A DNA stretch of 64,000 nucleotides, taken from NCBI GenBank assembly GCA_021683455.1, contig GCA_021683455.1_3051.1; one strand, 5' to 3'. Each line of letters opens with the position of its first letter. The first letter of the stretch is position 1. The notes below the pieces were generated by a model. It searched no databases, was not told where the DNA came from, and saw only the letters and a list, made by a program, of their open reading frames with translations. Source of the stretch: a phage. Positions 71 to 1,045 of this stretch are shown piece by piece. The position numbers and the translations under genes are program-made.

Positions 71-101
71 AAAAAGCCCCAACCTTTTGGTCGGGACTAA
101 G
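71..101 (-). terminator. Minus-strand hairpin plus T-run after the CTS-protein gene; near-identical copy at 626..656
   Basis: Reverse complement reads cccgacc-AAAA-ggttggg followed by gcttttt; the ~31-nt element recurs at 626..656. Confidence 0.55.
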
Positions 102-105
102 AATG

Positions 106-579
106 TTATTTGATTTGTTTAGCAGACCAAATGCGGTCTTTAATAATTTTTTGGATGTCTTCAACATACTCTAGGTCATGAGCATGTGGGTTATCTTTAA
201 AGCTATGAGCACGAGCTAGCTTTTGGCCTTCAGTTTTGATTACTAAAAGCTCTTTAAGGATAGCTTCATATTTGGAGATAATTCCTTTAACGATATTTTT
301 TTCTTGTGCGACTTTAGGATCTGCTTTAGGAGCAGGTTTACCCGAAGCCTTTGCAAAAGCAGCGCCAGTAGCAACTAAACTTTTCCAGGCCATACTAACT
401 GCATTTCCCGTAAATCCTTCCGCTTTCATGTCGCGTGCGAACTGAAATCGCGATTCATCAGAAGCATCTTTGTAAGAATATTTACCCGCTGCAATGGCTG
501 CTTTTGCGACAGCTTGAATTTCGGTGCTAGATGCTTCATTTAACACCGCTTCATTTAAAAATTGAGTATATGATTTCAT
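106..579 (-). CDS. Internal head protein-like protein with N-terminal capsid targeting sequence (157 aa)
   Basis: N-terminus MKSYTQFLNE resembles the T4 IP capsid targeting sequence (IPI here starts MKTYQEF) with an L-x-E prohead-protease site; AGGAAA SD; late promoter upstream. Confidence 0.6.
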   Translation of the reverse strand: MKSYTQFLNEAVLNEASSTEIQAVAKAAIAAGKYSYKDASDESRFQFARDMKAEGFTGNAVSMAWKSLVATGAAFAKASGKPAPKADPKVAQEKNIVKGIISKYEAILKELLVIKTEGQKLARAHSFKDNPHAHDLEYVEDIQKIIKDRIWSAKQIK

Positions 580-615
580 CTTATTTCCTGTTTTAATTCG
601 TGGTTTTAATATACT

Positions 616-623
616 TATTTATA
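616..623 (-). promoter_or_regulatory. T4-type late promoter TATAAATA upstream of the CTS-protein gene
   Basis: Minus strand reads TATAAATA about 35 nt upstream of the start codon at 579. Confidence 0.5.
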
Positions 624-625
624 CT

Positions 626-656
626 AAAAAGCCCCAACCTTTCGGTCGGGGCTAAG
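626..656 (-). terminator. Minus-strand intrinsic terminator closing the tRNA/stable-RNA transcription unit
   Basis: Reverse complement gccccgacc-GAAA-ggttggggc followed by TTTTT. Confidence 0.6.
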
Positions 657-969
657 CCTTGCGGCAACCTTGTCGGGGTTCCACCTGCTAAGGCAAGTGT
701 TTGTACGAAACGCCGGGATTCGAACCCGGTTATTAAGCAGTTGACGCTACTCAATATTTTTAAAAGGCCATATCTCGACCATATCCGAACGTTCCGTCAA
801 AAACGCTACTCGGTTTACGGCAAAGATATTTCCTCGAATCGATAATTCGGTGCGCCGTTTCTGCTGTGATATAAGGGGACATTAACAAAACATAAAGATT
901 TATTAATGCCAGTCCTTAAACAGGGAACATCAGTCCGACGACTTGCCGGTAGCGACCCGGCTTCTTGTC
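657..969 (-). ncRNA. Stable RNA region downstream of tRNA-Arg with a tRNA-like 3' domain; cf. T4 species 1/2 RNAs (rnaC/rnaD)
   Basis: No credible ORF; T-arm-like ccgggTTCGAATcccgg at about 712..728 with a pairing 7-bp acceptor-like stem (cggaacg/cgtttcg); position matches T4 stable RNAs. Confidence 0.4.
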
Positions 970-1045
970 TGGTCGAGGCAGTAGGGATCGAACCTACGAC
1001 CTAGGACTTAGAAGGTCCTTGCTCTTCCTTCTGAGCTATGCCTCG
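970..1045 (-). tRNA. tRNA-Arg (anticodon TCT)
   Basis: Hand-folded cloverleaf on minus strand: acceptor CGAGGCA/TGCCTCG, anticodon loop CTTCTAA, T-arm GGTTCGATCC, encoded CCA. Confidence 0.8.

Follow-up and report, generated by a model that had tools for sequence, protein, structure and literature searches.

The transfer RNA (tRNA) operon of bacteriophage T4 is expressed as a single primary transcript, which is the precursor of eight tRNAs and of two further RNAs, species I and II, and which ends past the species I gene (PMC2330249). Species I and II correspond to RNAC and RNAD, respectively. RNAC has been seen by northern blot, and both are classed as late RNAs (PMC9697503); no biological role is known for either (PMC3014915), so that fifty years on they are still abundant RNAs without a known function. 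Here we describe the corresponding locus in a 64,000-nucleotide (nt) stretch of phage DNA (GenBank assembly GCA_021683455.1, contig GCA_021683455.1_3051.1), hereafter the window, to which all positions refer unless another record is named. The window belongs to a T4-like (Tequatrovirus) genome, and its first 2.4 kilobases (kb) carry a T4-type tRNA operon on the minus strand. The segment of interest, 969..657 (313 nt, minus), lies past the last true tRNA and had been described in an earlier note, written from the letters alone, as non-coding sequence with a tRNA-like domain. The element is already known, as rnaC and rnaD of T4; being textbook T4 biology, its presence in another T4-like genome is ordinary. 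What the present analysis adds is a definition of the rnaC family over about ten genera, a fold backed by covariation and with a probable kissing loop, and the finding that genomes treat rnaC like a tRNA. Neither a family model of rnaC nor the kissing-loop fold proposed below was found in Rfam 15 or in the searchable literature.

The segment gives a gap-poor alignment with the annotated records of T4 (NC_000866; rnaD at 71053-71171, rnaC at 70908-71046) and RB9 (KM606998). Through this alignment, window positions 968..848 and 842..704 (minus) are shown to be orthologues of T4 rnaD and rnaC, respectively, bearing out the earlier note's suggestion that counterparts of two stable T4 RNAs are encoded here. 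The rnaC sequence is identical to that of T4 at 136 of 139 positions (97.8%) and to that of RB9 at 138 of 139; among the three substitutions relative to T4, two fall in helices (G.U and A-U variants). The corresponding identities for rnaD are 83.6% (T4) and 98.3% (RB9). When positions 600-1000 were compared by BLAST with 50,697 phage records, 807 records matched (best identity 99.3%), almost all from Tequatrovirus-like phages of Escherichia, Shigella, Yersinia and Salmonella, and some of them annotate rnaC and rnaD. A covariance model (R1), built from an alignment of 28 distinct rnaC sequences (A8; see below), found rnaC as its sole match in the 64-kb window (701-842, minus; 158.7 bits). The annotated 3' end of rnaC is at 704 and the model match reaches 701; the ends of rnaC are uncertain by 1-3 nt.

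The order tRNA-Arg, rnaD, rnaC, trailer, terminator is common to the window, T4, RB9 and phage GiZh, whose record annotates the same terminator element. As in T4, the two RNAs lie past tRNA-Arg and ahead of the operon terminator; nothing essential differs between the two loci, and the central arm of rnaD differs as it does among all Tequatroviruses. The two RNAs are shown to be the final products of the operon transcript, whose end is marked by the 656..626 terminator. Their placement between the tRNAs and this terminator had been anticipated and the order holds, but the last 47 nt (703..657) are a trailer that lies outside both annotated RNAs. This trailer is 95.7% identical to that of T4 (95.7-100% across T4, RB9 and GiZh) and conserved within Tequatrovirus; it contains one small hairpin of 7 base pairs (bp) and folds no better than shuffled versions of itself (z = -0.27).

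The segment contains no conserved open reading frame (ORF). An 81-amino-acid (aa) ORF does exist on the plus strand (600..845), as had been noted; Pfam has no match for it, and at the corresponding site of T4 it is reduced to 34 aa. Nor is there a Pfam match for either of two small minus-strand ORFs (53 and 42 aa). The view that 657-969 holds no credible ORF is thereby upheld. The RNA, on the other hand, folds more stably than shuffled controls, with z = -5.85 for 620-972, -3.97 for rnaC alone (0/200) and -2.68 for rnaD alone (3/200). ARAGORN called neither a tRNA nor a transfer-messenger RNA (tmRNA) in 657-969, and an Rfam scan of 6 kb at E <= 1 gave no match there, in line with the earlier observation that a standard anticodon arm is missing. 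A permissive Rfam scan of 620-975 returned sub-threshold chance matches only: tRNA-Sec (16.6 bits, against a gathering score of 47), isrK and anti-hemB.

RNAalifold, applied to 20 distinct rnaC sequences, predicted 44 pairs, 24 of them with compensatory changes. An explicit structure was counted on the 28 sequences of A8, which represent Tequatro-, Mosig-, Gapriver-, Winkler-, Kanagawa-, Karam-, Moon-, Gelderland-, Mosuguk- and Marfavirus (rnaC is numbered such that the window coordinate equals 843 minus the position). This structure comprises 47 pairs, and 93.0% of the cells are paired, a figure that drops to 36-49% on sliding the 3' partners by 1-3 columns. Both sides change in 29 of the 47 pairs, and 0/500 shuffles reach any of the observed measures. 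The earlier note had made its reading depend on a structure conserved across related phages; for rnaC such a structure is clearly present, with compensatory changes in those 29 pairs. The comparison shows rnaC as a four-way junction of an acceptor-like stem, a T-arm, a long irregular arm and a 10-bp hairpin, together with an A-rich joiner (Table 1).

The acceptor-like stem combines five Watson-Crick pairs (C2-G137, G3-C136, A4-U135, C7-G132, G8-C131) with U5.U134 and U6.U133. The 7-bp stem originally proposed therefore stands as regards its two strands, 712..706 and 841..835, which do pair, but not as regards its length, two of the seven positions being conserved U.U mismatches. Pair 4-135 is A-U in 10 sequences, including that of this window, G-C in 17 and G.U in 1. 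The register of the stem is fixed by Pectobacterium phage PM2, the only case in which the U.U mismatches give way to Watson-Crick pairs (both U-A); C2-G137 becomes A-U there. The T-arm, CCGGG-UUCGAAU-CCCGG, was correctly recognized in the earlier note, and its middle pair covaries (U-A in 14, G-C in 11 and A-U in 1 sequence). Acceptor-like stem and T-arm are coaxial in sequence order and together resemble the top half of a tRNA. In the long irregular arm 16 of the 19 pairs counted are compensatory; the arm comes in two unrelated sequence types with the same shape and the same loop, and pair 42-49, which closes loop 43-48, covaries (U-A, U.G, G-C). The joiner is unpaired in every prediction and has a nearly invariant AAAAU core. 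The 10-bp hairpin, with 9/10 pairs compensatory, occupies approximately the place of the anticodon or variable arm of a tRNA. A competing fold in which positions 47-53 pair with 131-137 as the acceptor, chosen by ARAGORN and by the Rfam tRNA-Sec model, was rejected, as pair 49-135 is broken in 8/20 sequences without compensation.

Table 1. Features at the 3' end of the tRNA operon in the 64,000-nt window; numbers given with rnaC are positions within that RNA.
Feature	Position	Strand	Remarks
tRNA-Arg(UCU)	970..1045	minus	last true tRNA of the operon; ARAGORN; Rfam tRNA 68.1 bits
rnaD (T4 species 2 RNA)	968..848	minus	121 nt; RB9 and T4 annotations transferred via alignment A1
Spacer AAUUA	847..843	minus	5 nt, rnaD to rnaC
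rnaC (T4 species 1 RNA)	842..704	minus	139 nt; T4/RB9 annotation transferred by alignment
Acceptor-like stem, 5' strand CGAUUCG	841..835	minus	rnaC 2-8, paired to 131-137
Long irregular arm	834..765	minus	rnaC 9-78; base 9-11 with 76-78; pairs up to about position 73
Apical loop of long arm UUGACG	800..795	minus	6 nt, rnaC 43-48
A-rich single-stranded joiner UUUAAAAA	764..757	minus	rnaC 79-86
10-bp hairpin	756..731	minus	rnaC 87-112 (87-96 with 103-112)
Hairpin loop CGUCAA	746..741	minus	6 nt, rnaC 97-102
T-arm CCGGG-UUCGAAU-CCCGG	729..713	minus	rnaC 114-130; stem 114-118 with 126-130, 7-nt loop UUCGAAU
Acceptor-like stem, 3' strand CGUUUCG	712..706	minus	rnaC 131-137; directly past the T-arm
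Conserved tail UACAA	705..701	minus	directly 3' of the acceptor-like strand
3' trailer	703..657	minus	47 nt, annotated rnaC end to terminator
Intrinsic terminator of the tRNA operon	656..626	minus	31 nt; 10-bp stem (7 G-C pairs), GAAA loop, U-run

Judged by this conserved fold, rnaC is a mimic of the acceptor/T-arm half of a tRNA, and is not itself a tRNA. A T-loop arm of the UUCRANY type is joined directly to a seven-position acceptor-like stem, with covariation in both helices. Measured against the cloverleaf, rnaC has neither a D-arm nor a 5-bp anticodon stem with a 7-nt loop, its hairpin having a 10-bp stem and a 6-nt loop; measured against tmRNA, it has no tag reading frame, no ARAGORN tmRNA call and no Rfam match. 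In this window, as in most genera, the tail past the acceptor strand reads U-ACA-A; Marfavirus has U-CCA-A and PM2 has U-CCA-U. When rnaC was compared with 109 phage tRNAs, the T-arm region alone rose above shuffled controls. Descent from a particular tRNA was considered and dropped: the best partners vary by phage and, with the T-arm alone above controls, no ancestor can be named. The tRNA-like domain announced in the earlier note is thus to be sought in rnaC; rnaD is not tRNA-like (see below).

The loops of the long arm and of the 10-bp hairpin are both exactly 6 nt long and are perfectly complementary in 27/28 sequences. They read UUGACG/CGUCAA in 24/28 and UUGGCG/CGCCAA in 3/28, the latter all from Marfavirus, with PM2 as the remaining one; at pair 46-104, 25 sequences have A-U and 3 have G-C. 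UUGGCG/CGCCAA also occurs in three further Marfavirus-type contigs from IMG/VR, and both loops were intact in 27/27 complete loci recovered with a pattern that left the loops unspecified. The computed duplex energies are -5.5 kcal/mol for the T4 type, -7.6 for the Marfavirus type and -4.9 for a G.U intermediate. Because the loops are complementary and covary, we infer a loop-loop contact: most likely the two pair as a 6-bp kissing complex. The contact is probably made within one molecule, which would close rnaC into a compact, nuclease-resistant shape; the alternative is a head-to-tail dimer. Since the loops change together, a fixed external target for each loop, or mimicry of one particular anticodon, is unlikely. 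A specific anticodon mimic (GUC being that of Asp, GAC its codon) was considered and is disfavoured, as Marfavirus has GCC/GGC at these positions.

Homologues of rnaC were collected by BLAST walks, and pattern scans added IMG/VR and metagenome contigs. Besides Tequatrovirus, the walks identified homologues in Winklervirus (Kc304), Kanagawavirus (IME523, PEi20 and Kosakonia phage 305), Karamvirus (KaAlpha, UFV01), Moonvirus (NM4.3, KM16), Gelderlandvirus (Melville), Mosugukvirus (Pectobacterium phage PM2), Gaprivervirus (VR7), Mosigvirus (ESh15) and Marfavirus (EI, VAC36, Potts1). Walks started from KaAlpha, PEi20, EI and PM2 led to no genera beyond those nine and Tequatrovirus. The rnaC signature had 0 matches in a scan of 185,579 bacterial and archaeal genomes, and a loose two-gap pattern scan of IMG/VR gave about 95 chance matches and one new, truncated member. 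Weak R1 matches at other IMG/VR loci were set aside as ordinary class II tRNAs or as an unrelated tRNA-like element. One of the weak matches (27.7 bits, about 115 nt) lies in the 98-kb IMG/VR contig 3300033066_001150 (L149:12398-12511). This element has a clean acceptor stem (ACACCCG/CGGGUGU), a D-arm, a T-arm and a long insertion in place of the anticodon arm; it could be an intron-bearing tRNA or another tRNA-like RNA of an unrelated virus.

The position of rnaC in these genomes shows that, at the level of gene arrangement, it is treated like a tRNA. It lies between tRNA-Trp and tRNA-Gly in Karam- and Gelderlandvirus and between an unannotated tRNA (36 bits) and tRNA-Trp in Winklervirus; in IME523 it directly follows tRNA-Met, and in Marfavirus it comes about 70 nt past tRNA-Met. 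In PEi20 an annotated tRNA is first reached about 630 nt upstream of rnaC, and none is annotated in the 1.2-kb stretch examined in Kosakonia phage 305. Where a tRNA or rnaD lies directly upstream, it ends 5 nt before rnaC position 1 (leader AAUUA or AACAA); where a tRNA lies downstream, it starts 7-10 nt past the acceptor-like strand. By this spacing and placement, rnaC behaves like a member of the tRNA array, and outside Tequatrovirus it usually lies within such an array. The unannotated tRNA directly upstream of rnaC in Kosakonia phage Kc304 (L004:1431-1502) is atypical, with a GAA-like anticodon loop, a weak anticodon stem and the T-loop AUCGUUA; it was missed by ARAGORN and scores 36 bits with the Rfam tRNA model. 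Existing annotation of the family is inconsistent. Many GenBank records place coding sequences for a "hypothetical protein" over rnaC/rnaD (e.g., L137:518-655, L138:517-654, L135:444-617 and L134:615-743 in our set of loci); in the PG7 and KKP_3262 records the 3' part of rnaC is annotated as tRNA-Met or tRNA-Phe, and ARAGORN makes false tRNA calls (Met, Phe, "Stop"; about 95 nt) on the same part in several loci.

On comparative evidence, rnaD is a separate structured RNA that is not tRNA-like, with a conserved core and an apical arm that is freely replaceable. Among 12 distinct sequences its 5' hairpin, RCCGG-GUCGCUA-CCGGY at 961..945 (minus), is conserved and has one covarying pair. The basal stems are invariant and the central arm (about 919..872) is hypervariable, being replaced wholesale in some phages (loci L013 and L015). 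RNAalifold predicted 34 pairs on the 12 sequences, 9 of them compensatory. No match was obtained between rnaD and either the Rfam tRNA models or R1. The gene was found only in T4-type tRNA operons, that is, in Tequatrovirus and in the closely similar loci of the VR7/ESh15 type. In the other genera where rnaC lies directly past a tRNA, this tRNA holds the place of rnaD, and the 3' end of rnaD coincides with the position of the tRNA's CCA end. That rnaD might be a tRNA-like RNA with a CCA end was nevertheless rejected: its last three bases are CCG, CCA, CAG or CCU, hence no CCA is conserved, and the basal stem leaves a 2-nt overhang. Also discarded was a pairing of the rnaD loop with GUAGCG repeats of rnaC, since such a 6-mer match is expected by chance (about 4 expected). 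A terminator scan flagged GCCGGTAGCGACCCGGC plus T-run on the plus strand at 945-961; the call at GCCGGTAGCGACCCGGC is the mere antisense of the 5' hairpin of rnaD and no separate feature. When phage BW1 was evolved on the semi-permissive host ECOR34, the same rnaD single-nucleotide polymorphism (SNP) appeared in all lines (PMC12685909). This SNP is the only functional hint found for these RNAs.

Given that rnaC of other genera lies in tRNA arrays, with a CCA end 5 nt upstream and another tRNA 7-10 nt downstream, it is probably excised like a tRNA. The acceptor/T-arm minihelix is a minimal substrate for RNase P and the CCA enzyme. From the anatomy of the locus and what is known of tRNA processing, we infer that rnaC is cut out by the host's tRNA-processing enzymes. 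RNase P would release it by cleaving just 5' of the acceptor-like stem, next to a U or A, a base that good RNase P substrates also have there; RNase E may cut within the AAUUA spacer, and 3' exonucleases would trim the trailer or the short spacer. The kissing contact would then lock the molecule. Function aside, we regard this account of the identity, fold and biogenesis of the rnaD/rnaC region, taken jointly, as highly probable.

Several points nonetheless weigh against it. The RNA ends come from database annotation, and an RNase P cut at the base of the stem would give C2 as the 5' end, 1 nt downstream of the annotated start. Winklervirus Kc304 (UGCAUUC) and Kanagawavirus IME523 (UGCAUGC) have lost the T-loop consensus, so recognition specific to the T-loop cannot be universal. 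Behind the loop pairing stands a single independent compensatory event, in the Marfavirus clade, and for this reason the kissing contact is supported, not proven. The loops are otherwise invariant, which would equally fit recognition of each by another partner; the contact is shortened to 4 bp (GACG/CGUC) in PM2; and the bend that would bring the 25-bp arm back onto the 10-bp hairpin has been judged by rough geometry only. Finally, T4 mutants that lack the tRNA region are viable on laboratory hosts.

As to function, our tentative suggestion is that rnaC may serve as an abundant, uncharged mimic of the acceptor/T-arm half, occupying or diverting a host or phage factor that reads this half. Candidate targets of such a decoy would be a processing enzyme or a defence toxin aimed at tRNA ends. 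A broader version, which we consider rather doubtful, would make rnaC the founder of a class of tRNA top-half mimics confined to phages, present in at least ten T4-like genera of Enterobacterales and absent from cellular genomes, excised by host tRNA processing, locked by the kissing contact and acting as a decoy or inhibitor, e.g., of an anti-phage toxin acting on tRNA 3' ends by modification or cleavage; rnaD, given its hypervariable arm and convergent SNP, would be a second host-range determinant. The main rival of the decoy reading, itself on the unlikely side, denies both RNAs any function in trans: they would be processing or stability modules, kept because they are stable, that provide RNase P/E sites and shield neighbouring tRNAs from exonucleases. 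This would suit RNAs that are co-transcribed with the tRNAs and lie at the operon's 3' end in Tequatrovirus (PMC2330249), and would account for a replaceable rnaD arm; moreover, exactly 5 nt always separate rnaC from the end of the upstream element, suggesting coupled processing. However, rnaC lies mid-array in Karam-, Gelderland- and Winklervirus, where 3' protection is needless, and stands apart from tRNAs in PEi20 and Kosakonia phage 305, while its invariant single-stranded blocks and covarying loops over about ten genera point to selection on the folded RNA itself.

The same loops bear on the proposal, to our mind improbable, that rnaC and/or rnaD are base-pairing regulatory small RNAs. 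UUGACG, CGUCAA and, in rnaD, GUCGCUA are accessible invariant hexamers or heptamers that might pair with host or phage mRNAs or tRNAs, and recent papers loosely speak of "small regulatory RNAs". Yet the two loops of rnaC complement one another and vary in concert in Marfavirus, as is predicted by internal pairing and not by a fixed external target; a seed of 6 nt is too short to specify a target on its own, and T4 has no functionally characterised trans-acting small RNA (PMC3014915). The tRNA-like end, for its part, raises the question of whether rnaC could be a working, oddly shaped adaptor akin to tRNA or tmRNA, repaired to CCA, aminoacylated and active on the ribosome. The acceptor/T-arm minihelix with its discriminator-like U, the NCCA tail encoded in Marfavirus and PM2, and the ARAGORN mis-calls on the 3' 95 nt of rnaC in some phages all lean this way. 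But most genera, this window included, have UACA and not NCCA; there is no 7-nt anticodon loop, D-arm, tag reading frame or tmRNA call; the cloverleaf-like pairing of 47-53 with 131-137 is broken in 8/20 sequences; and the anticodon-like loop is taken up by the proposed kissing contact, so that we find an adaptor role very hard to credit. Least credible of all, and close to negligible, is a decaying pseudo-tRNA, junk spacer or small-protein gene. The T-arm alone resembles real tRNAs and many records do show "hypothetical protein" genes over the region, but the ORFs are neither conserved nor matched by any family and substitutions are compensatory in helices rather than synonymous. Against it also stand the retention of rnaC in about ten genera and its 97.8% identity between T4 and this phage when the flanking rnaD is at 83.6%.

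The remainder of the operon is laid out in the order Gln, Leu, Gly, GIY-YIG ORF, Ser, Thr, Met(CAU), Tyr, Asn, Arg, and the encoded CCA end of tRNA-Arg(UCU) lies 1 nt ahead of rnaD. The GIY-YIG ORF (216 aa; 1475-2125, minus), a homing-endonuclease gene between tRNA-Gly and tRNA-Ser, has 117 N-terminal residues that are 83% identical to T4 SegB and an unrelated C-terminal half. Its site is that of tRNA-Pro in RB9 and T4, and no tRNA-Pro is present in the cluster of this phage. The ORF may encode a SegB relative that has exchanged its DNA-binding domain and acquired a new insertion site. On the other side of the RNAs, a terminator consensus scan matched 653..630 plus a T-run, with a near-copy at 98..75. 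Between these two near-identical copies lies a 157-aa ORF (579..106, minus; no Pfam match), preceded by a T4 late-promoter motif, TATAAATA (623..616, minus), directly past the first terminator. This insert is absent from T4 and RB9 at the same site and present in GiZh and many other records; window 75-656 has the appearance of a small mobile gene cassette with a terminator repeat at either end.

A covariance model that recognises the rnaC family over about ten genera is of use in itself, the gene being often mis-annotated as a small protein or a tRNA. The comparative model also offers experimental handles: a loop pair whose complementarity can be broken and restored, and a tRNA-like end open to processing and 3' assays. 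Should rnaC prove to be a decoy for host factors that target tRNAs, it would represent an RNA-only addition to the phage counter-defences, and such a role would explain why rnaC travels with phage tRNA clusters.

Among known RNAs, rnaC is best compared with the canonical tRNA (RF00005) and its acceptor/T-arm minihelix, with which it shares a seven-position stem set directly on a 5-bp T-stem with a UUCGAAU loop, as well as its embedding in tRNA arrays with tRNA-like spacing. It differs in having no D-arm and no 7-nt anticodon loop, in its two conserved U.U mismatches, in UACA where tRNAs have NCCA, and in about 65 extra nt in the long arm; it falls below the threshold of every tRNA model. In general plan it resembles the tRNA-like domain of tmRNA and the bacterial Y-RNA-like YrlA, both tRNA mimics attached to a long helix, but it has no Rfam match to either, no tag ORF and, in most members, no encoded CCA. 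A further parallel is provided by the kissing complexes of TAR-TAR* of human immunodeficiency virus and of RNA I/RNA II of ColE1, in which loops of 6-7 nt are fully paired. As in those systems, rnaC presents two hairpins whose whole 6-nt loops are Watson-Crick complementary; unlike them, it carries both hairpins in one RNA, where the predicted contact would close a ring via the four-way junction.

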